Below are positions 6,854 to 38,315 of a DNA stretch of 64,000 bases, piece by piece. The notes below the pieces were generated by a model. The model worked only from the letters and a program-made list of their open reading frames with translations, was not told the origin of the DNA and searched no databases. Made by a program: the position numbers and the translations under genes. Source of the stretch: Acidiferrobacterales bacterium. GTDB lineage: Bacteria; Pseudomonadota; Gammaproteobacteria; Acidiferrobacterales; SPGG2. Location of the stretch: assembly GCA_046760105.1 (NCBI GenBank), contig JBHIDJ010000006.1:3197-67196 (forward strand). The letters are read 5' to 3'. The stretch's first letter is position 1. Each line of letters starts with the position of its first letter.

Positions 6854-7087
6854 TCATATTACAAAAGGTTTTTATATATTTTATAGTAACTACAATTAGT
6901 GCTGTTGATATGTCTATAAAGCTAGCTATGCATTATCAGGCAAGGCGACCCGGCATTGAAAGCCTGTGAACAAGCTTGTGTTTACACAGTGTGTTTCCTG
7001 TGACAGAGGCCGGGTGGGGTTTGTATGACTATGGGACAATTGTCATTATGCACAGGGAATCTACAGGGCTGTGTTCTGATCTAGTTG
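6854..7087. promoter_or_regulatory. dnaA-dnaN spacer: AT-rich tract plus DnaA-box-like 9-mers (dnaN promoter and/or oriC candidate)
   Basis: AT-rich stretch at about 6850-6935 (ttacaaaaggtttttatatattttatagtaactacaattag). TTATGCACA (7046-7054) fits the relaxed box TTWTNCACA. TGTGAACAA (6965-6973) has 2 mismatches to TGTGGATAA. Confidence 0.3.
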
Positions 7088-8425
7088 TTACGTAGTCAAT
7101 ATCTTTATGAGGTTCTCATAGTCCTCTTTAGCACGGACATCGCTGGTAACCAGTGTGTTGATCTTACGGCATGCGTGCAGCACCGTTGTGTGGTCACGCC
7201 CACCGAACGCATCACCAATCTCTGGGAGGCTGTGATTCGTAAGCTCCTTGGCGAGCGCCATTGCCATTTGCCGTGGTCGTGCTACCTGTCGGGAGCGGCG
7301 CTTTGAGTGTAAGTCTGACACCCGTATCTTGTAGTATTCGGCGGCCGTCTTCTGAATGTTGTTGATCGTGACTAGCCGCTCCTGAAACGCGAGCAAGTCC
7401 TTCAGGCTTTCGCTGGCGAGCTCTACGTTAATCATGCGGCCAGTGAAATCTGCATTAGCCATAACACGACGGAGCGCGCCTTCAAGCTCACGTACATTTG
7501 AACGCACACGCTTGGCAATGAAGAAGGCAACCTCGCCTGGTAGCGTCGCACCGTCACTTGCCGCCTTCTTTATGAGGATAGCAACCCGCGTTTCCAGCTC
7601 CGGTGGCTCGATCGCAACCGTCAGCCCTGACCCGAAGCGCGATATTAATCGTTCGGCGACCCCGATGAGGTCTTTCGGGAAGCGGTCTGCGGTAATGATA
7701 ACCTGACGTTGACCTTCCAGTAAGGCATTGAAAGTATGGAAGAATTCCTCCTGAGAGCGCTCCTTGCGCACGAAGAATTGGATGTCGTCGATGAGCAGTG
7801 CATCGAGTGAGCGGTAGAATCTCTTGAACTCATTGATGGCATTGTGTTGTAACGCTCGGACCATGTCCGCCACGAAACGCTCCGCGTGCACGTAGGCAAC
7901 ATCCGCCCTAGGCTTACAGTGCAGCATCAGGTTTCCCGCTGCTTGCATAAGGTGGGTTTTACCCAACCCGACACCCCCGTAGATGAACAGCGGGTTGTAC
8001 GCTCCACCCGGGTTTTCGCCAACCTGGTTTGCAGCGGCGCGCGCAAGCTGATTGGACTTACCCTCGACGTGGCTCTGGAACGTGAACTCTGGGTTTAGCC
8101 GGCCGACTACAGGCACGGCCTTATTGCCCACGCTCGCCGTGCGTGTTGCAATCGGTGTTGCATTCGCCAGTGCCCGCTCTTGACCACCGACCTCCACATA
8201 CACGCTCACGCTGCCAGCGGCGTCGTACTGTGTCGCGAGCTCGGCGATACGTTCCATGAACCGCTCCCTTACCCAATCCATCACAAAGCGGTTGGGTGCT
8301 AGCAACCGCAACACACGCTCTTCTTTTATTGCTTGCAGTGGACGGATCCATGTGTTGAATTGTTGGGTAGGTAGCTCCTCCTCTAACCGCGCTAGGCAGT
8401 TTGTCCACAAGGCTGGATGTGTCAT
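7088..8425 (-). CDS. dnaA: chromosomal replication initiator DnaA
   Basis: [19 protein letters not shown] Walker A, LLIDDIQF, and C-terminal [27 protein letters not shown]. Start set to ATG 8425 ([19 protein letters not shown]); the track ORF extends 19 codons further. Confidence 0.96.
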
Positions 8426-8607
8426 GGGCGTTGTTCTGTTAGTTGTGGGGGGGCGAGAGTCTATCGCCAAACTCGTGTGCAATCTACATGTCGAAAGCTA
8501 CTCTAATGGATACAAGCATTTGCGTTTGTCAGTAGTTGACAAACCTGCGTTCAAGGCATTAACGTTGCGCCCCGCTTGCAGTAAGGAAGCGTTTAAGACC
8601 GGCACCG

Positions 8608-8742
8608 ATGAAAAGAACGTATCAACCAAGCGTTTTAAAACGCAAACGCAACCACGGGTTTCGGGCGCGCATGCGCACAGCGGGCGGTCGTGCAGTGCTT
8701 AATGCGCGTCGCGCGAAGCGCCGCTCACGCCTGAGCGCCTAA
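8608..8742 (+). CDS. rpmH: 50S ribosomal protein L34
   Basis: Absent from the ORF track because it is 44 aa. ATG 8608 gives [44 protein letters not shown], with stop TAA at 8740-8742. Canonical position upstream of rnpA. Confidence 0.95.
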
Positions 8743-8754
8743 CCTTTTTGGCAC

Positions 8755-9123
8755 GTGCCGGCGCGCGCCCGCGAAGGGCTACCCAAATCATATCGTCTGC
8801 TGCAGCCGTCGGCGTTCACATCCGTGCTGCGTCGTGGCTGTAAAAAGCGCGATGGTTATTTTACTGTGCTTGTGGTGCGGAACACGCTGGCACATCTACG
8901 CGTAGGCTTAGTGGTATCGCGTAAGGTGTCGTCGAGGGCGGTCGTGCGTAACAGGATCAAACGTCAAATACGCGAATCGGTTCGTCACCATCAGCCAGAG
9001 CTGAAAGGCCTTGATCTCGTCGTTATCGCCCAGCCGCAAGCGGCACGTGCGGAAGCTTCTGCGCTGCGGGCATCGCTTCGGCAGCACTGGATCAGTATCA
9101 TAGAAAAATGCGGCAAGCCCTAA
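8755..9123 (+). CDS. rnpA: ribonuclease P protein component
   Basis: [17 protein letters not shown]...[28 protein letters not shown] (RNase P protein RNR motif). GTG start, exact start uncertain. Confidence 0.9.
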
Positions 9124-9356
9124 TACGCATCGTGCGCGGCTATCGCTATTTTATCAGCCCACTACTGGGGCCACGCTGCCGCTTCTATCCGACATGTTCC
9201 GAGTATGCGCTGACCGCCATCGAGGCGCACGGGGTGTGCAAAGGTGTGCGGCTTGCGTGCTGGCGCCTGCTGCGTTGCCACCCCTGGCACTCGGGGGGCT
9301 ACGATCCTGTGCCTGCAGGCACGTCGTGCAACGAACACAAGGCAGGCCATGGATAA
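9108..9356 (+). CDS. yidD: membrane protein insertion efficiency factor YidD
   Basis: [58 protein letters not shown] is the full YidD signature. Overlaps the rnpA end and the yidC start. Confidence 0.92.
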
Positions 9357-11019
9357 CACGCGTTTCTTGCTGATTATCGCGCTCGCGATCATCATATTCT
9401 TGATTTTCCAGGCGTGGCAAGAGGAACAACGTCGGGCGGCTGAGCCGCCCGAGATCGCGACAGCGCCCGCCACCCCGGATGCGCCGGATGCGCCCAAGCC
9501 CCCGGCGGCTGAGACACCGGTACCAGCCCCACCTGCGGTGGAGGAGCGACCCACGAAGGCACCCGAGGCACCGCCCACCCGCATCGAGACGGGCGCGCAA
9601 ATTACGGTGGTGACGGATGTGGTCGAGGCGGTCATCGATACCGCCGGCGGCGATCTGCGCGAGCTCAAGTTGCGCAAGTACCCGGTGTCGGTCGATAAGC
9701 CGGATGAGCCCTTTGTGCTGTTGGAGAGTGCCGGCAAACATATCTATGTCGCGCAGTCGGGGCTCATCGGCCTCGATCGGGAGTATCCCACTCACAATAC
9801 GCGTTACCAGGCAGAAGCAAGCCGTTATGTACTGGCTAAGGATGCGGATCGGGTGCAAGTGCCGCTGCGCTGGCAGGCACCCGATGGCGTGCGCTACACG
9901 AAGCTCTATACCTTTCACCGCGACAGCTACGTCGTCGATGTGGAGTTCCTTGTCGAGAACACCGACGCCGGGCCCTGGGAGGGGCATCTCTACCGTCAGT
10001 TCCGCCGGCGATATATCGATCCCAAGCGCGGCTGGTTGGCACTGCCCACATACACCGGTGCCGCCATCTACACGCCCGAGGATAAGTACGACAAGATCTC
10101 TTTCGGCGACATTCGCGACGAGCCGCTGGAACGCGACGTGACCGGTGGTTGGGTCGCGATGTTACAGCACTATTTTGTGGGTTCGTGGATGCCGGCAGCC
10201 GACGAGCGCAACCGCTTTTACACGCTGGCGCTCGCGGACGACAACTACACCGTGGGCCTGAAGCAATTAACGCCAACCACCGTGGCGCCGGGCGCGAGCG
10301 GCCGGTTAAAGACAACGATCTACGCTGGCCCCAAAGAAACCCGTCGTCTGACGCGGCTGGTGGAAGGCATGGAGCTTACCGTCGACTACGGCTGGCTTAC
10401 CGTCATATCGGCGCCGCTGTTCTGGTTGCTCCAGTACATTCACGGCTGGGTTGGGAACTGGGGCTGGGCGATCGTCGTGCTCACTTTTATCATCAAGCTC
10501 GTGTTCTATCCCTTGTCAGCCGCGAGCTACAAGTCGATGGCGCACATGAAACGGGTGCAGCCAAAGCTGCAGAGCCTGCGGGAACGCTTCGGTCATGACA
10601 AGCAGCGCATGAACCAGGCGATGATGGAGCTTTACAAGAAAGAGAAGATCAACCCGCTAGGCGGCTGTCTGCCGATCGCGATCCAGATCCCGGTGTTTAT
10701 CGCGCTTTACTGGGTGTTGCTCGAGAGCGTCGAGCTGCGCCAGGCGCCCTTCATTCTCTGGATCACGGATCTAAGTGTTCGGGATCCCTTATTCGCCTTG
10801 CCCCTGATGATGGGCGCGACCATGTTTATTCAGCAGAAGCTGAATCCTCCTCCCCCGGATCCGATGCAGGCAAAGGTCATGATGGCCTTGCCGTTCGTGT
10901 TCACGGTGTTCTTCCTGTTCTTTCCCGCGGGACTGGTGCTTTACTGGCTGGTTAACAACATCCTCTCAGTCGCCCAACAGTGGCAGATCACACACATGAT
11001 CGCGGCCAAGGCAAAATAG
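9349..11019 (+). CDS. yidC: membrane protein insertase YidC
   Basis: [25 protein letters not shown]-terminal TM, a long periplasmic domain, and the C-terminal core [19 protein letters not shown]...[20 protein letters not shown]. Start set to ATG 9349; the track ORF carries 35 extra codons. Confidence 0.95.
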
Positions 11020-12383
11020 AATCCGCTTTGCCGATTCCCGCACGCGACACCATTGCTGCCGTCGCCACGCCGCCGGGGCGTGGCGGCATCGCGATCGTGC
11101 GCGTGTCCGGGCCCGCAGTGCGTGCCGTCGCCGAGGGGCTCGTCGGCCAGCTGCCGCGCCCGCGCTACGCGGTTTATGGTGCATTCGAGGATGCCTGCAA
11201 GCGCCCGATCGACAAGGGCATTGCATTGTTCTTTCCGGCGCCCGGTTCCTTCACCGGCGAGGACGTGCTGGAGCTCCACGGCCATGGTGGTCCGGTGGTC
11301 ATGGACATGCTGCTCAAACGCGTGCTGCAGCTCGGGGCCCGCATGGCACGTGCAGGCGAGTTTTCCGAACGCGCGTTTTTAAACGGCAAGCTCGACCTGA
11401 CGCAGGCTGAAGCCGTCGCCGATCTTATCGAAAGCAGCTCCGAAAGCGCGGCACGTTCCGCGTTGCGTTCGCTCGAAGGGCAATTCTCCAGGCGCGTGCA
11501 TGCGATCGTCGAGCAGCTTATCGAACTGCGCACCTATGTCGAGGCATCGATCGATTTTCCTGAAGAGGAGATCGACTTTTTGTCCGATCACAAGCTGTCG
11601 CGCGATCTCGTGGCAATACTGCAGGGGCTCGATGATCTACTTGAGTCGGCGCGCCAGGGCTGCTTGCTGCATGACGGTATGACGATCGTGTTGGCGGGCC
11701 CACCTAATGCCGGCAAGTCCAGCCTGCTGAATCGGCTCGCACAACACGATGCAGCGATTGTCAGCCGCACACCGGGCACGACCCGGGATGTCCTGCGCGA
11801 ACGCATCCAAATAGACGGCATGCCGGTACATGTATTGGACACCGCGGGTCTGCGCGATTCCACCGGTGAAATCGAAACCGAGGGCGTACGCCGCGCACGC
11901 GCCGCGATGGAACACGCCGACCGGGTGTTGCTCGTGATCGATGACGACATCGCGGATGAAAGCTCGGTGCAAACGCTCATACAGCAGCTTCCGCAGCCGG
12001 TGACCTATACATTGATCCGCAACAAGATCGACCTCAGTGGCCGCCCGCCGGGCGAGTGTGACAACACCGCTCAGACAGAGCTCGCACTGTCAGCCAAGAC
12101 CGGGGTTGGCCTCGACGACTTGCGCCAACATATGAAAAAGACGATGGGATTTCAGGACGCCGGCGAAGGGACGTTTATCGCCCGGCGCCGGCACCTGGAC
12201 GCACTTGCGCGTGCGCGCCGGCATGTACGGGCGGGGCAGGAGCAGCTAGAGCACGCACGCGCCGGCGAGTTGGCGGCCGAGGAGTTGCGCCTCGCCCAGC
12301 AAGCGCTTAACGAGATCACTGGTGAGTTCACCACCGAGGATCTGCTCGGCCGCATCTTCGCGAGTTTTTGTGTTGGCAAGTGA
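10980..12383 (+). CDS. mnmE: tRNA modification GTPase MnmE
   Basis: DTIAAVATPPGRGGIAIVRVSG, GPPNAGKSSLLN (G1), DTAGLR (G3), C-terminal FCVGK. GTG 10980 overlaps yidC by 40 nt; TTG 11028, just after the yidC stop, is an alternative start. Confidence 0.93.
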   Translation: MADHTHDRGQGKIESALPIPARDTIAAVATPPGRGGIAIVRVSGPAVRAVAEGLVGQLPRPRYAVYGAFEDACKRPIDKGIALFFPAPGSFTGEDVLELHGHGGPVVMDMLLKRVLQLGARMARAGEFSERAFLNGKLDLTQAEAVADLIESSSESAARSALRSLEGQFSRRVHAIVEQLIELRTYVEASIDFPEEEIDFLSDHKLSRDLVAILQGLDDLLESARQGCLLHDGMTIVLAGPPNAGKSSLLNRLAQHDAAIVSRTPGTTRDVLRERIQIDGMPVHVLDTAGLRDSTGEIETEGVRRARAAMEHADRVLLVIDDDIADESSVQTLIQQLPQPVTYTLIRNKIDLSGRPPGECDNTAQTELALSAKTGVGLDDLRQHMKKTMGFQDAGEGTFIARRRHLDALARARRHVRAGQEQLEHARAGELAAEELRLAQQALNEITGEFTTEDLLGRIFASFCVGK

Positions 12384-31767: not shown

Positions 31768-33600
31768 ATGTGTGGCATTGTTGGTGCGGTTAGTCAGCGC
31801 AGCGTAGTACCGATCCTGCTTGAGGGGCTCAAGCGTCTCGAATACCGCGGCTATGACTCCGCTGGCGTGGCGGTATTGGACAGCCAGAATAGTATTGAAC
31901 GCTTGCGCACCGTAGGTAAAGTAGGAGTGCTTGAGGAGGCGATTCGAGAGAACGAGCTCAGCGGGGCCACCGGTATTGCCCATACGCGTTGGGCGACGCA
32001 CGGTGTACCTAGCAAAGATAACGCTCATCCGCACATGTGCTATGACCGCTTGGCGGTGGCACACAATGGAATCATTGAAAATCACGAAGCCTTGCGAGCG
32101 AAACTCGAAGACCTTGGCTACCAGTTTGCCTCACAAACCGACACCGAGGTTATTGCCCATCTGATCGATCACCACCGGACTGAGCATCCTGATCTACTCG
32201 CGGCGACGCAAGCGGCGATTCAGGAGCTCGAAGGCGCGTACGCCATTGCTGTGTTGAGCCACGATGAGCCTGAACGCATCGTCGGCGCGCGCAAGGGCAG
32301 CCCACTCGTCGTCGGTATCGGTGTCGAGGAGCACTTCTTGGCTTCGGACGTGTTGGCGCTTGCACCGGTGACCCGGCAGGTGATCTATCTAAACGAGGGT
32401 GACGTGGTTGATCTGCACCGGACGAGGTGCGCTGTCTACGGTGTTGATGGTAAGCAAGCGGAACGCGCGGTACGTGTGTCAAAAACGTCGGCCGACGCCG
32501 TAGATCGTGGCCAGTACCGCAACTTCACGCAAAAAGAGATCTTCGAGCAGCCGCAAGCGCTAGCGGATACGCTCGAGGGGCGCATAGGCAGCGATCGTAT
32601 CCTCGAACGGGCGTTTGGTGTCAATGCGCCGGCGGTTTTTGATGCGGTGGAGGCGGTGCAGATTATTGCCTGCGGAACCAGCTATCATGCAGGGCTGGTC
32701 GTCCGCTATTGGTTGGAAAACTTGGCAGGGTTGCCGTGTGCGGTGGAGATTGCCAGCGAGTTTCGTTATCGCAAACACGCCGTAAGGCCCAATACGCTCG
32801 TTGTGGCCATCTCCCAGTCCGGCGAGACAGCAGATACGCTTGCGGCCGTGCAGTATGCGAGGTCGCTCGGATTGGAACGTACGCTGGCGATATGCAATGT
32901 CCCGGAAAGCTCTCTCGTGCGGGATTCGGATTTGGTGTTATTCACGCGTGCTGGACCGGAGATCGGTGTGGCGTCGACCAAAGCGTTTACCACGCAGCTG
33001 GGCTCCTTATTGTTGCTCGTGGTCGCGCTGGCGCGTCGTCACGGACTTACGCCGCAGCAGGAGCAGGCAATCGTCGCGGAATTGGAGCAACTACCCGGGC
33101 ACCTGAGCGCGGTGTTGGCGCTGGACGACAAAATCAAACAGCTGGCCGAGCGTTTTGTGGACAAACATCACGCGTTGTTCTTGGGGCGCGGCGTGCAATT
33201 CCCGATTGCACTCGAAGGTGCGCTGAAGCTGAAAGAAATCTCGTACATCCACGCCGAGGCGTACGCCGCGGGCGAACTCAAGCACGGGCCGCTGGCGCTG
33301 GTAGATGCGAACATGCCGGTGGTGGCGGTGGCGCCGAACGATGACCTGCTGGAAAAACTGAAATCCAACCTCCAAGAGGTACGGGCACGCGGTGGTGAGC
33401 TGCTGGTATTCTCGGAGGCGGGGGCGGGGGTGCGCTCGGAGAACGGCACGACCATCGTGCAGATACCCGCAGCCGGTGAGTTCACGGCGCCGATTCTTTA
33501 TGTCGTGCCGTTACAACTCTTGGCCTATCATGTCGCGGTGGTCAAGGGTACCGACGTCGACCAGCCGCGCAATCTCGCCAAATCGGTGACGGTGGAGTAA
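31768..33600 (+). CDS. glmS: glutamine--fructose-6-phosphate aminotransferase
   Basis: MCGIVGAV (N-terminal catalytic Cys), two SIS domains, C-terminal [13 protein letters not shown]. Confidence 0.98.
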
Positions 33601-33618
33601 GGTTCAAGCTATCTGCAC

Positions 33619-36600
33619 TTATTGCCAGCACTCACCCGGCGCGTTCGCTTTGCCTTTGCCCGGATCAGTCTGAGCCGGTGGCTCGCGGACGAGACCCTCG
33701 TCCTGCTCGAACCGCTTGTGTGTTCTGTAAATCTGCCGGCGTTTGTCGAACCAAGGGCGTGCCTTGGAAATTCTCCATTTTTTCTTGCCATCACGCAGTT
33801 CGACAGCCACCGACAGAGCACGGAGTTTTGCGTAGAAAACCCCCGCGACCTGGCGCTGAAAAATATCGAGTTCACCGAGAATTTTGAGCCTGTCTCCTGT
33901 CATCTCGAGATCCTCGACCTCGACCGCCTTGCCATCCATCTTGAAGTCAGCACGGGTTTTGATGTCTGTAACGGTGAGCAGATTCTTGAACCACCGGACA
34001 ATCCCCTTTTTTTCTGAAAGAAGCACGACAACGGGGCGCGAGTCACGCATTTCCATCTCAATGCGCGCCTCGAGCTGCGCCGGGGTCGTTACTTGCATTT
34101 TGGCTTGCGGCAAACTAAGACGCGCCCACCAGGTAGTATCGGTGCCGATCTTGGCAGTCCCGACGTACATGTTATTGAGTTCAAGCTTTGTGTCACCTAT
34201 GTCAAATGTGCGTGCCTTCAGGTCACCGTTCTTGAGGTGGGCATGTAGCGTCATGTCGCCCGCCATTGTCACGTTCCTGAATTGAGCCACGATCCGCTCG
34301 GCGCGGAACTCAACCTCACCCTTCGCTGACGCCTCCGTTTCGGATGCCTCAATGCGGGTTCGGATTCGACCACGGCCGGAATGTATAAAAAAGCAGGAGT
34401 CGGGCGGGACATAAGCGTTGTAGAAACCGAAGTTCGGAACGTCGGATTCTGGTAGATCCAGGACCACTTTAAGATCAGTAAACGGATCGGTGAGATCCAA
34501 TTCAGAGCTCGTACCGGTGATTTCGAAGCCGATGCCGAAAATGTGGGGTTCTACGTATTCTGACCTTCCGAGTTCGAAGTCATCCAGCGTTACCGTCACT
34601 TCCGCAAAGGCCCGATCCTTCTCGCGAGCGACGCGGCCACGTACCTTGCCCGAACCGCGCGCCTTAAAGTCGAGATAGGTGGCTCGAATCTCATCGGAGT
34701 CAACGGCCAAGCGACTACCGGCAACGAGCCTCCCTTTGCGCACGCGCAAGAAAGCATTGAGCGTTCCGGACCCATTAATATCGAGCCATGGCGCCTTACG
34801 GAAATAGGCGTTCAGGAATTGCAAGCCAGGGACACGGCCAGCCACGCGCACAGTCCCGGATATTGAACGCAATGCATCTTGGCTTTTTTGCTCAGCGAGT
34901 ACGAGGTGGTCAAATATGGAGTCAACGTTTATCGTCAGATCCTTAACGGCCTTTCCATCCCTGAGCCGTACCTCTCCCGAGGCCAACTGTAGCGAAGCTT
35001 TGCGTATAGCCAGTGGCCCTTCGGTAAGAACGATTAGACCGTCGGCGCGCTCGCCCTTATCACTCGGCCCATACTGAACATCGGTCACGACCTTCAGATT
35101 TCCCGACAGGGCGACGTCTTGGAATGCGGCGGCGACACCGGTGCCGGTTATTGCGAGGTTAGCGGTTGTGGTGGGGTGCCCTTGGGCAGTCTCAAACAGG
35201 CCGTCAAAGCGACCAGCGCCGGACCGGATGCGCAGCCCCGTCCGTGACGGAATGTAGTTATTAAGATAGCTCAGATCTGGTATGGTGCCGTCGACGCGCG
35301 CGGATGCGGACATGAAACGCGTCAAGTCGAACACCTTTTTTAGATCTAGAGTGTACTGGGCAAACTCGGACTGCAACTCTAGCGTAAAGTCTTTGGCAAT
35401 GGTTTGCTGCCGATCGCGTATCTTTCCCGAGGTGAGCGTCACCGATGCTTTCAACACTTCTAACCACCCTAGCTCGCTGAAGGCGACCAAGCCCTTATCG
35501 TCCCGCTCCTGCAACCCATATTGAAGGTCGGCACTCAACTCTAGCTCGCCGGCGACAACGAGATCTTTGAGCTCGGCCGTGACATCTTCGCCAATGAGTA
35601 CTAAGTGGCCCGTAGCATCGGGTTGCCCCGACGCCGTCTCGAAGCGGGTCTGAATTTGACCGGTACCCGAACGGATGCGTAGACCCGTCTGTGATGGGAG
35701 GTAGTCATTGAAATATGGCAGATTCGGAATCCTACCAGCGACACGCAGCGATCCAGAGGTGTAATCGAATACACTGAGCGCTTTGTGTGGATCCAGCGTG
35801 TATTGGTCAAAGGCGGATTCGAGCTCTAGCGTGAAATCCTGAGCGATGACTTGCTGTCGATCGCGTATCTTTCCGGAGGTGAGCGCGACTGAAAGCTTCG
35901 ACACTTCGAACGGCGCGTCGGAGAATACGATCAATCCGTCTTCGTCCTCTTCCAACCCGTACTCGAGGTCCGCCTTAACACTCAAATCACCGCCAATGGT
36001 GAAATGCCTGTATTGCATTACCGTACCTTGGCCTACGACCTCGATTTTACCCTCGGCCGTTCGTTCTTGCGGGGAGCTCGTAAAGCGGCTGCGCATGCGG
36101 CCGCTACCTGCACGAATGGTGATGTCCATCTCTTGCGGGATCAATGTGTTGAAAAAGCTGAGCTCCGGCACCTCGGCGTCCGGCAGGTCGACGATCAACG
36201 TTAGGTCAGTGAAAGGGTCACGTAGGTCGAGGTCGCTGCTGGTACCACTGACCTGTAATTCACGGCCAAGAGCAAAAGGTCTTTGTGCTTGCGCTTGTGC
36301 CAGCTCAAAAGTCTCTAGCGCCACGGACACTTTTGCTACGGGCTTCCCGTTCTCGAGTTCGACGCGACCCTGCACCTTACCTGGGCCCTTGGTGGTGATG
36401 GTGTAATTGGCTGCGTTAATCACGATTTCTGCCGTTTCGACGGTGACACGGGTTTCCTGCGACAGCACCCCTTTCTCCAGGTGCAGTTCAGCATCCAGCA
36501 CGCCGCTGCCATCGATATTGAGCCACGGCATTTTGCGGAAGTAGGCTTTCAAGAAGTTCAAACCTTTTACAGCTGCCGTATGGCGCACAGTTCCCGAGAC

Positions 36601-37338
36601 GAATCCCAAGGCTTTGATGCCTTTCTCTTCGCTGGGGACGAACTCATCGATCGTAATATCGGCATGCAGTTCACTGTCTTCCTCAACGACCGTGTCTCCT
36701 ATCCACCAGTTCCCTGAGGTGAGCACTACAGTTGCGCGCGGCACTTCAAGCGGTCCTCTGATGGTGTGTATCATGCTACCGCTCACGCGCCCGTCGCCAG
36801 CGAAGCGGAATTGCTCGATCCACAATGTGCGGACATCACTGATTGCGATGTTGTTCATCTCCAACGTCCACGGGGACTTACGGGTTGTCCGCGGGTACAG
36901 GTTTTCCGGGGGTGGCTGCGGTGGGTTCGAGAGCCCGGGAATAGATGGAGTTAAATCAACATATTGAGGTTTGGGCTCGTCTGGACGTAATCGCTGGCGC
37001 ATCCGGAACTCGAGCCCACGGCCGTTCATCGAATTGGCCTGGAACCGTTTCAGCAAAAGCGGGATTAAATCGATCGATGCACGAATCTCGTCGAGTTCCG
37101 CATACCACTGAAACCTTCTATCTTGTCCGCGAATCTGGAGACCTTGAACGTGAACAATGCCGGGGAACAGCGTCCAACCCTTTTCCCATCGAATCCACAA
37201 TTTCTCCGGCTTTCGGTTGATTAGTTGTGATGCTATCTCGGTATTGAGAAAAAGGTTTGCCAGCACGAGGTAAAGCCCTGTGACCACGACCACCGCGATC
37301 ACGACATGCGTTAGCCACTTTCGCAGAGATGACTTCAT
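33619..37338 (-). CDS. 1239-aa N-terminally membrane-anchored repeat protein; AsmA/TamB/YhdP-like architecture (function unassigned)
   Basis: One N-terminal TM (WLTHVVIAVVVVTGLYLVLANLF), then beta-rich sequence with internal modules. An outer pair is GTSSDLDLRDPFTDLTLIVDLPDAEVP versus GTSSELDLTDPFTDLKVVLDLPESDVP. Tandem inner modules are SGKIRDRQQVIAQDFTLELESAFDQYTLD versus SGKIRDRQQTIAKDFTLELQSEFAQYTLD. The family assignment is inferred from architecture only. Confidence 0.85.
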   Translation of the reverse strand: MKSSLRKWLTHVVIAVVVVTGLYLVLANLFLNTEIASQLINRKPEKLWIRWEKGWTLFPGIVHVQGLQIRGQDRRFQWYAELDEIRASIDLIPLLLKRFQANSMNGRGLEFRMRQRLRPDEPKPQYVDLTPSIPGLSNPPQPPPENLYPRTTRKSPWTLEMNNIAISDVRTLWIEQFRFAGDGRVSGSMIHTIRGPLEVPRATVVLTSGNWWIGDTVVEEDSELHADITIDEFVPSEEKGIKALGFVSGTVRHTAAVKGLNFLKAYFRKMPWLNIDGSGVLDAELHLEKGVLSQETRVTVETAEIVINAANYTITTKGPGKVQGRVELENGKPVAKVSVALETFELAQAQAQRPFALGRELQVSGTSSDLDLRDPFTDLTLIVDLPDAEVPELSFFNTLIPQEMDITIRAGSGRMRSRFTSSPQERTAEGKIEVVGQGTVMQYRHFTIGGDLSVKADLEYGLEEDEDGLIVFSDAPFEVSKLSVALTSGKIRDRQQVIAQDFTLELESAFDQYTLDPHKALSVFDYTSGSLRVAGRIPNLPYFNDYLPSQTGLRIRSGTGQIQTRFETASGQPDATGHLVLIGEDVTAELKDLVVAGELELSADLQYGLQERDDKGLVAFSELGWLEVLKASVTLTSGKIRDRQQTIAKDFTLELQSEFAQYTLDLKKVFDLTRFMSASARVDGTIPDLSYLNNYIPSRTGLRIRSGAGRFDGLFETAQGHPTTTANLAITGTGVAAAFQDVALSGNLKVVTDVQYGPSDKGERADGLIVLTEGPLAIRKASLQLASGEVRLRDGKAVKDLTINVDSIFDHLVLAEQKSQDALRSISGTVRVAGRVPGLQFLNAYFRKAPWLDINGSGTLNAFLRVRKGRLVAGSRLAVDSDEIRATYLDFKARGSGKVRGRVAREKDRAFAEVTVTLDDFELGRSEYVEPHIFGIGFEITGTSSELDLTDPFTDLKVVLDLPESDVPNFGFYNAYVPPDSCFFIHSGRGRIRTRIEASETEASAKGEVEFRAERIVAQFRNVTMAGDMTLHAHLKNGDLKARTFDIGDTKLELNNMYVGTAKIGTDTTWWARLSLPQAKMQVTTPAQLEARIEMEMRDSRPVVVLLSEKKGIVRWFKNLLTVTDIKTRADFKMDGKAVEVEDLEMTGDRLKILGELDIFQRQVAGVFYAKLRALSVAVELRDGKKKWRISKARPWFDKRRQIYRTHKRFEQDEGLVREPPAQTDPGKGKANAPGECWQ

Positions 37339-37636
37339 GGATTGTGCTGGAGCACGCAGGGTTTCTGAGTCCGTAGTGACGCAATATTCCTACCAGCTAC
37401 AACTTAACGGATCCCCGCTTAGCTATCAATGGACGAGATTACTATCTATAGAGGGAAGCCAAAGCCTTTTCAGCAATCCGCCCTTTGCGCAAATTTGAAG
37501 TAAATGCTTGTGCTCGTCAAACGGGATTGCGGGGAACCTAGATTCTACCGTGTGCATGTCGAACGGGGTGTCTTGTTCTGCTAACCAGCTGTTCACTTGA
37601 AGATATTGGCGAGGCATCTCGGGATGCTCGTTAACG

Positions 37637-38242
37637 CTATGTGCCTGTCATGGTAATGTGATTGCGTTGCGACTTCACGCGCTCGAGCCATGCGCGAATC
37701 CCCCGATATTTTGATAGATCAAAGTCGCCCTCGTTGGCTACATGCGTATAGGCATATAGGCCAATGTCGGCGATAGTGTAACGCTCGCCGACAAGATAGT
37801 GGTGATTCGTTAGATGTTTTTCCATCACATCGAGGGCGGCATAACCCGGTAGGCGCTTTTCTTCCAGGGTCTTCTTGTGCTCTGGCGGCGCGCCAAGGTA
37901 ACGGATTATGTAACGCGAAGTGGCAATATAAGGCTCGTGGCTATACTGCTCGAAGAATAGCCATTGTAGCACCTCGGCATGTTCAAACTTACCGGTCGGG
38001 AGAAAATCAGTGCCCTCGCTTAAGTAATGTAGGATGGCGTTAGATTCGGCTAGGAAAACATCGGGTTCGATTTCGAGGAGGGGTATCTTCCCGTTTGGAT
38101 TCTTCGCCAAGAACTCTGGAGCACGGGTTTCTTTCTTAAGAATATCGACATGTATCCACTCGAACGGTTGTCTCAATTGAGTGAGAAGCAGCATTACCTT
38201 GTAGCAATTACCCGAATAGTAATCACCGTATACCTTAAACAT
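37637..38242 (-). CDS. glutathione S-transferase family protein
   Basis: MFKVYGDYYSGNCYKVMLLL...FLAKNPNGKIPLLE...ESNAILHYL thioredoxin-like N-domain plus a helical C-domain. Start ATG 38242 preceded by GGAG. Confidence 0.85.
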   Translation of the reverse strand: MFKVYGDYYSGNCYKVMLLLTQLRQPFEWIHVDILKKETRAPEFLAKNPNGKIPLLEIEPDVFLAESNAILHYLSEGTDFLPTGKFEHAEVLQWLFFEQYSHEPYIATSRYIIRYLGAPPEHKKTLEEKRLPGYAALDVMEKHLTNHHYLVGERYTIADIGLYAYTHVANEGDFDLSKYRGIRAWLERVKSQRNHITMTGT

Positions 38243-38315
38243 AAGAACTCCTTGACGTCGTGTGAGGAAGCACCCGCAGTCACGGGTCACGAAGCGACAG
38301 CCGTTGACTTCTTGA

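Follow-up and report, generated by a model that had tools for sequence, protein, structure and literature searches.

A large unannotated gene beside glmS in an Acidiferrobacterales bacterium probably encodes a divergent AsmA-like lipid-bridge protein

What is the function of a protein of more than 1200 residues that is highly repetitive, rich in predicted beta-strands and carries no annotated domain? The question is raised by a gene in the stretch of DNA analysed here (hereafter the window), 64,000 nucleotides from the assembly GCA_046760105.1 of an Acidiferrobacterales bacterium (contig JBHIDJ010000006.1, positions 3,197 to 67,196). The open reading frame 33619..37338, on the minus strand of the window, starts with ATG and encodes 1239 aa followed by a stop codon, and is a complete coding sequence. 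Its product is identical to the NCBI protein ACE5NW_02635 from a metagenome-assembled genome (Acidiferrobacterales bacterium), which is annotated as hypothetical, and the identical 1239-aa protein was found on 4 contigs. An initial annotation, made from the sequence by eye, had proposed an AsmA/TamB/YhdP-like build with recently duplicated internal modules. AsmA-like bridges are at present the favoured explanation for the delivery of phospholipids to the Gram-negative outer membrane. To our knowledge, only a handful of AsmA-like paralogues are known, in E. coli and P. aeruginosa, and these are redundant. We consider it probable that the gene encodes a divergent, unannotated AsmA-like lipid-bridge protein that belongs to the repeating-beta-groove (RBG) type. 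Membership in the AsmA-like/RBG superfamily is the firmer part of this reading and is highly likely, and the chance that the cargo is specifically phospholipid is about even. The protein was filed as a new, unannotated family-level member of this superfamily, and not as something categorically new.

The first line of evidence comes from the N-terminal region. The protein opens with basic residues, after which positions 11-31 form a hydrophobic stretch of 21 residues (MKSSLRKWLT-HVVIAVVVVTGLYLVLANLFL). A signal-anchor helix was assigned to residues 8-32 (37243..37317, minus strand, as are all parts of the gene given below), with the basic residues K2, R6 and K7 standing before the hydrophobic stretch. 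Y23, N28, F30, L31 and N32 of this helix are invariant in 16 orthologues, and the hydrophobic stretch is kept in all relatives. The helix is predicted to be an inner-membrane anchor, cleavage by signal peptidase being a possibility. It is followed by a conserved membrane-proximal domain at residues 39-186 (36781..37224), which is the only part of the protein with direct profile similarity to any named protein. When a profile of 61 family sequences was compared by hhalign with E. coli K-12 AsmA, residues 39-180 aligned in register with AsmA residues 39-175 (probability 59%, E 9.1e-5), and the four control proteins TamA, Wza, TynA and Wzc gave E values of 0.24-0.58; the templates were single sequences, which limits the sensitivity of these comparisons. 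In AsmA-like proteins a Chorein-N-like domain of 100-150 residues follows the anchor (PMC10345924), and the aligned residues 39-180 would correspond to this domain. Residues 13-113 of the query also matched NCBIfam TIGR03545 with E 1.3e-6 and 27 bits (cut-off 173), which was its sole NCBIfam match apart from noise.

The family as a whole was then characterised. When the family profile was searched exhaustively with HMMER, 2673 clusters at 50% identity were recovered with E <= 1e-3, and 1430 of these clusters at E <= 1e-30; word-indexed profile searches with two alignments recovered only about 30 proteins. Family members range from about 575 to 1307 aa, and some entries of about 600 aa may be fragments. 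Members with a named source belong to Halomonadaceae, Xanthomonadales, Acidobacteriota (Thermoanaerobaculia) and Campylobacterota, and all of them are called hypothetical. One UniRef entry, a 724-aa relative, is titled 'DUF3971 domain-containing', which the Pfam scan did not reproduce. Sixty-one representatives of the family were scanned against Pfam and NCBIfam, with Pfam matches counted at E <= 0.01. DUF748 was matched by 10 of the 61 (best 3.1e-11, 42.5 bits, under the 50-bit cut-off) and AsmA by three (best E 1.8e-8), and no other Pfam family was matched among them. In NCBIfam, nine representatives matched the Leptospira-type GspN (best 3.3e-6) and one matched TamB (NF047952, E 2.8e-4), with isolated matches to HscB and DnaJ. 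DUF748, DUF3971, AsmA and DUF490 had previously been interlinked by HHpred (PMC4494059).

The predicted structure points in the same direction. An AlphaFold2 model of residues 1-1200, built from a 30-sequence alignment, had a predicted local distance difference test score (pLDDT) of 83 and a predicted TM-score (pTM) of 0.53, and showed a helix at residues 2-40 followed by an antiparallel meander that is 61% strand. These features agree with the single anchor and beta-rich body that had been described from the sequence. A second model, of residues 684-1239, reached pLDDT 85 and pTM 0.81, with low confidence from residue 1212 to the end at 1239 (28 residues). Counting strands that are 8 or more residues long gives 49, with a mean length of 14.2. 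Hydrophobic residues alternate between odd and even positions along the strands (2.37 vs 1.39 in shuffled sequences), and one strand face is 59% hydrophobic and 11% charged, while the other is 39% charged. The repeated module consists in the model of five strands of 15-17 residues and a sixth element that contains a helix, which is close to the RBG unit as defined in PMC12066543. In a Foldseek search of the PDB, the LPD-3/BLTP1 lipid-bridge complex (9cap_A) ranked first with E 5.9e-6 and probability 0.97; the lipid-binding beta-belt of ApoB100 and LptD came next. The AlphaFold and Foldseek check that had been suggested for this gene returned an all-beta model whose top PDB match is a lipid-bridge protein.

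We place the protein in the AsmA-like superfamily because several weak lines agree, namely the anchor, the profile match to AsmA, the DUF748 and AsmA matches of relatives, the meander in the AlphaFold2 model and the structural match to LPD-3. The proposal of an AsmA/TamB/YhdP-like build was therefore upheld at the level of the superfamily and not as orthology to TamB, YhdP or YdbH, for which neither hhalign nor Foldseek gave a signal. Scores stayed under every specific family threshold (AsmA, DUF748, TamB, YhdP and YdbH), and the features of the superfamily are either present or compatible with the protein.

Several observations weigh against this assignment. No Pfam or NCBIfam model reached its curated cut-off in the query or in any relative tested, and profile searches of PDB sequences with two alignments found nothing. 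The hhalign probability for AsmA was just 59%, and the E values for TamB (0.19-0.26), YhdP (0.39-0.41) and YdbH (0.10-0.12) were at the level of the controls. Foldseek TM-scores were about 0.1 throughout, and no TamB entry was among the 50 Foldseek matches listed for either model. For the C-terminal half (684-1239), Foldseek found nothing at E < 1e-3, and its weak matches were closed barrels (LptD, FimD and porins); alternating amphipathic strands also fit barrels and sandwiches. In the neighbourhoods of the orthologous loci, no outer-membrane partner gene is conserved beside the large gene. We also know of no demonstrated lipid-transport role for E. coli AsmA, YicH and YhjG.

The strongest competing explanation is that the protein has an AsmA-like fold and does not act as a bulk phospholipid bridge. 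It might instead be an envelope scaffold or tether, a factor in outer-membrane-protein assembly, a GspN-like accessory to a secretion system, or a carrier of another hydrophobic cargo, which could be lipid A precursors, hopanoids or other lipids of sulfur-oxidising Gammaproteobacteria. Only some AsmA-like paralogues have been implicated in phospholipid transport (PMC10345924; PMC10900882), nine of the 61 relatives weakly match GspN of the Leptospira-type type II secretion system, no conserved outer-membrane partner adjoins the gene, and the gene context of distant relatives contains lipid A acylation or fatty-acid/ACP genes and not phospholipid synthesis specifically. However, with 1239 aa and about 49 strands the protein belongs to the size class of YhdP and TamB, whose transport role is proven, and not to that of the short AsmA and YicH. 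There are no type II secretion genes in the neighbourhood, and the GspN matches, none of which is in the query, are weak (best 3.3e-6) and far under the scores of true members. Taken together, this explanation is unlikely, but it deserves more weight than those that follow.

Convergence was considered as well, in which an amphipathic beta-sheet protein unrelated to the AsmA-like proteins forms another architecture, for instance a large open barrel, a beta-belt or a periplasmic sheet that binds lipids or polymers. Every sequence link lies under curated thresholds, Foldseek also returns ApoB100, LptD, usher and porin barrels with TM about 0.1, and no TamB, YhdP or YdbH signal was obtained. On the other side, the sub-threshold matches are nearly all to AsmA-like families (DUF748, AsmA, TamB, TIGR03545 and GspN), HscB and DnaJ alone falling outside. 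Furthermore, the AsmA alignment is in register and places the membrane-proximal domain right after the anchor helix, and the top structural match is a genuine repeating-beta-groove bridge. Convergence is judged quite improbable. A repeat protein of the adhesin type, secreted or at the cell surface (an autotransporter passenger, a beta-helix or Ig-like repeats), or else an assembly artefact, would account for a long, repetitive, beta-rich protein without database annotation, but it is the least probable of the explanations by far and is effectively refuted by the library scans, the strand lengths and the repeat maps of the orthologues: no adhesin, autotransporter or Ig-like matches were found in the query or the 61 relatives, the strands have 14-17 residues versus the 3-7 typical of beta-helices, a C-terminal barrel domain is missing, 16 orthologues whose assemblies and sources are independent show the same repeat map, and the identical protein is present on 4 contigs. 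Matches to an adhesin or autotransporter and an assembly artefact were also among the outcomes that the initial annotation had itself named as contrary to it, and none of those outcomes occurred.

The divergent AsmA-like lipid-bridge protein favoured here was next compared with the known systems. With AsmA (PF05170) and the AsmA-like clan CL0401 it shares an anchor helix, a putatively homologous membrane-proximal domain and a long, predicted all-beta periplasmic body of variable length, and the size range of the AsmA-like paralogues of E. coli and P. aeruginosa (AsmA, YdbH, PA4735 and YhdP) is mirrored by the range within the new family. It differs from AsmA in that no similarity is detectable past the first ~180 residues of the query, and from the clan in that its body is made of family-specific X and M modules. 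The sequence of its C-terminal domain (WWAR...MRDSRP...) has no relationship with DUF490 or with the C-terminus of AsmA. The query gave no match to PF05170, and its relatives P0029 (11.9 bits) and P0067 (15.8 bits) matched only with their N-terminal parts, below the threshold of 29.8 bits; at E <= 10, the matches of the query to Pfam were noise only.

PA4735/EpaF (DUF748, PF05359, 1088 aa) was described as the fourth redundantly essential AsmA-like protein (PMC10900882). It is of similar size, DUF748 is the family matched most by relatives of the query, and, as with the query's family, it does not occur in E. coli and its annotation is poor. The matches to DUF748 are however partial, the best relative covering model positions 175-357 of 1037 with 42.5 bits vs 50, and the query itself, which was compared with the DUF748 model, had no match at E <= 10. 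YhdP and TamB, phospholipid transport proteins of ~1260 aa that span the periplasm, share with the query their size class, the build of an anchor and a beta-rod, and the presumed function; they differ in showing no specific sequence or Foldseek similarity to it and in having another C-terminal domain. No Pfam match to TamB (DUF490/PF04357) was found in the query or the 61 relatives, and no tamA-like Omp85 gene is adjacent. Likewise, neither the query nor its relatives had Pfam matches to YhdP (PF13116 DUF3971 and PF13502 AsmA_2) or YdbH (PF11739), and no small lipoprotein genes of the YdbH type (ynbE/ydbL) adjoin the gene. The eukaryotic RBG bridges LPD-3/BLTP1, VPS13 and ATG2 resemble the query through the best fold match 9cap_A, through a repeat unit of five long antiparallel strands and a helix-bearing sixth element, and through conserved ends with duplicated central units. 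In contrast, sequence identity to LPD-3/BLTP1 is 7% with TM about 0.1, the sixth element of the query contains a real strand of 11 residues, and the query is bacterial, far smaller and without accessory domains.

The repeats of the body were mapped by segment-wise self-BLAST and a hidden Markov model (HMM) of the module, as whole-protein self-BLAST gave the diagonal only. The overall layout is N - half-M - X - B - C - D - X - half-M - C-terminal domain - tail. After the membrane-proximal domain comes a half-module, which corresponds to the latter part of the 147-aa unit, at residues 187-252 (36583..36780; module HMM), followed by the first copy of the X element at residues 253-387 (36178..36582, FLKAYFRKMPWLNIDGSG...PFTDLTLIVDLPDAEVP; self-BLAST). 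The three modules B (388-533; 35740..36177; module HMM and AlphaFold2), C (535-682; 35293..35736) and D (684-832; 34843..35289; module HMM) follow in tandem. Module B is modelled as a short helix, five strands of 15-17 residues, a helix and a strand of 11 residues. The second copy of X occupies residues 833-966 (34441..34842, FLNAYFRKAPWLDINGSG...PFTDLKVVLDLPESDVP; self-BLAST), and the module HMM found a further half-unit at 835-903. A half-module at residues 967-1041 (34216..34440; module HMM), which is the first half of the unit and holds the invariant C982, leads to the C-terminal domain at residues 1042-1200 (33739..34215), with WWAR, MRDSRP, W1116 and W1196. The C-terminal domain is the best-conserved part family-wide and has shorter strands and two helices (1101-1121) in the model. 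The protein ends in a tail at residues 1201-1239 (33622..33738) with two short predicted helices (~1193-1215), a variable basic stretch and a Cys-Trp end, in which pLDDT falls below 50 from residue 1212.

Self-BLAST showed an outer pair of repeats, residues 176-461 against 755-1038, with 39-44% identity and segment E values down to 1e-36, and a mid-protein period of about 147-149 residues, 451-600 and 598-749 being 53% identical. The outer pair reported before is thus real, but a length of about 285 aa per unit (one half-module, an X element of about 135 aa and a second half-module) describes it better than the ~230 aa first proposed. The three shorter tandem modules that had been seen between the outer pair were recovered as B, C and D, of about 147 aa each.

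The age of these modules was examined in the orthologues, which form 15 full-length clusters with 45-66% identity and lengths of 1227-1255 aa. A profile scan of genome contigs gave 6 orthologous loci. Three orthologues with 46-51% identity lie on contigs (L011, L014 and L015) binned as Nitrospira, Nitrospiraceae and Acidobacteriota, and the remaining ones are in bins of Acidiferrobacterales or Ca. Muproteobacteria; the three are probably mis-binned contigs rather than cases of horizontal transfer. The 28-mers at 35411-35438 and 35858-35885, from which a recent duplication had been concluded, were found exactly as described, with one base different (27/28) and a spacing of 447 bp. However, modules B and C as a whole are far from nearly identical at the DNA level: over 146 aligned codons they share 57.8% DNA identity and 43% protein identity, and near-identity is confined to a patch. 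The best extended stretch covers 136 nt at 74% identity, lying at 35776..35911 (minus strand) in module B, where it holds the 28-mer 35858-35885, and at 35329..35464 (minus strand) in module C, where it holds the 28-mer 35411-35438. Against the background of 57.8%, an independent-sites model assigns a P of about 0.001 to 28 nt with a single mismatch, which makes a run of this length unlikely.

Modules B, C and D were found at equal positions in 16 of 16 orthologues, and modules cluster by position and not by genome, the nearest neighbour of the query's B being the B of orthologue P0002 (67%). The triplication is, on these comparisons, older than the whole orthologue group, because B, C and D are positionally orthologous in all orthologues, down to 45% identity. 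Together with the 57.8% DNA identity of B and C, this led us to reject the recent duplication that the initial annotation had read from the 28-mers. Within one genome, B and C are 38-45% identical in the query and the two orthologues nearest to it, and 25-30% in the rest. The patch LTSGKIRDRQQ(V/T)IA(Q/K)DFTLEL is common to B and C in the query only; it is not found in P0002 or P0003, so that even relatives with 66% identity lack it. Such a pattern fits a short, lineage-specific gene-conversion tract between B and C, with the copy in module C as the proposed conversion patch, and not a young duplication.

The origin of module C itself can be approached through a shorter relative. P0031, a 1068-aa protein from 4 assemblies (one on a 118-kb contig), has just a B-like and a D-like module as full units, with unchanged ends, and lacks module C, the cysteine pair and the Cys-Trp tail. 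Across the 16 orthologues, module C is nearer to D over its first ~60% and nearer to B over its last third, a signal that stands out in five genomes and is weak elsewhere. A D-like head with a B-like tail is the pattern expected from unequal crossing-over between D and B, so module C most likely arose by such an event in a two-module ancestor. The alternative is that module C was lost in P0031 instead of gained in the three-module lineage. Family-wide, the N and C domains are conserved, whereas the number of modules between them differs, from a basal form N-X-halfM-C of about 625 aa to longer forms that add X-halfM, halfM-C-like or full M units. These comparisons match the idea that length evolves in quantised steps. 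The earlier suggestion that length is being tuned was thereby borne out as an evolutionary pattern, with two- and three-module relatives and varying module counts across the ~575-1307 aa of the family.

These observations can be combined into a proposed mechanism. The single N-terminal helix would anchor the protein in the inner membrane, and the Chorein-N-like domain beside the membrane would open into a one-layer amphipathic beta-sheet of about 49 long strands. This sheet is suggested to fold into an open groove with a hydrophobic inner face. The rod would span the periplasm, with an upper bound of about 235 A if each strand contributes 4.8 A, and the conserved C-terminal domain would contact the outer membrane or a partner there. 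The acyl chains of glycerophospholipids, the presumed substrate, may slide along the groove between the membranes. Such groove sliding of lipids has been proposed, and partly shown, for TamB, YhdP, YdbH and PA4735/EpaF, and transfer between liposomes in vitro has been assayed for AsmA proteins (PMC13542527). The length of the rod would shift by whole modules, each 147-aa module adding six strands or an estimated 29 A. The Acidiferrobacterales lineage would accordingly carry a longer rod with three modules (B, C and D) versus two (B-like and D-like) in the close relative, with module C produced by unequal crossing-over of D with B and the near-identical 28-mer by a later, short gene conversion between B and C.

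A second feature of the orthologues is their cysteine content. Exactly two cysteines occur in ~1240 residues in 16 of 16 orthologues, and both are invariant. C982 (codon 34393-34395) lies in a PPDSC motif, and C1237 (codon 33628-33630) lies in a terminal Cys-Trp-(Q/K/E/D), after a basic stretch that varies and is modelled with low confidence. In the 1068-aa and ~900-aa relatives examined, the tail and the two cysteines are missing. This conservation suggests that Cys982-Cys1237 may form a periplasmic disulfide that tethers the tail to the last section of the groove, or that the tail is a docking motif. We know of no description of a redox-sensitive latch or of a built-in outer-membrane docking peptide for any AsmA-like protein. 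A more ambitious proposal, that the protein is the first example of a large, phylogenetically broad AsmA-like family overlooked by present domain databases, whose bridge length was reset repeatedly and independently by whole-module gain and whose Acidiferrobacterales clade carries an invariant Cys982-Cys1237 latch, is put forward tentatively, as one that is rather doubtful in this full form.

The neighbourhood of the gene was also inspected. The glmS gene at 31768..33600 (plus strand), which encodes two SIS domains and a class-II glutamine amidotransferase (GATase) and is preceded by glmU, is convergent with the large gene, and the two stop codons are 18 nt apart (33601-33618), in agreement with the coordinates first reported. 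No terminator-like hairpin was found at the junction 33601-33618 (fold z = 0.87), and promoter and terminator scans were at chance level. No obvious Shine-Dalgarno sequence precedes the ATG at 37338 (37339-37365; cagcacaatccATG), and this start is backed by orthologues that align from residue 1. Within the clade, the locus is flanked by the atp operon and glmU/glmS on one side and by JmjC/cupin, GST and DsrC genes on the other. The convergent glmS arrangement is kept in orthologues and gone in distant relatives. We therefore read it as clade-level synteny rather than as an operon, and a functional link to glmS/glmU was rejected.

Upstream of the large gene, the 298-bp spacer to the GST gene (37637-38290) contains a remnant of a JmjC/Cupin_8 gene at 37450-37620 (minus strand), whose 57 codons are 54% identical to residues 355-411 of a 421-aa protein. 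In the orthologous loci L001-L003, an intact JmjC/Cupin_8 gene separates the GST gene from the large gene, and by this comparison the first ~354 codons have been deleted in this genome. Among distant family members, Billgrantia lactosivorans (L004) has a Lip_A_acyltrans gene of the LpxL/LpxM type (7014-7943) that ends 58 bp upstream of the homologue (8001-11351). On a metagenomic contig (L005; 8001-14927), a 910-aa relative is followed immediately downstream by a double MacB_PCD/FtsX permease, an ACP and a ketoacyl synthase. Such lipid-related neighbours are hints from gene context.

Three aspects are of most interest: how large the overlooked family is, its natural variants in module number, and the invariant cysteine pair. 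The results point to a widespread additional AsmA-like family that annotation pipelines label merely as hypothetical, and bacteria that lack TamB, YhdP and YdbH, or survive without them, may depend on it. The natural length variants, with equal ends and two or three 147-aa modules, could be used to test bridge length against periplasm width, and family members occur in culturable Halomonas (WP_208670719.1) and Pseudoxanthomonas (P. suwonensis WQ53_05280). For the window itself, the practical outcome is that 'AsmA-like family protein, putative intermembrane lipid transport' replaces 'hypothetical protein'.

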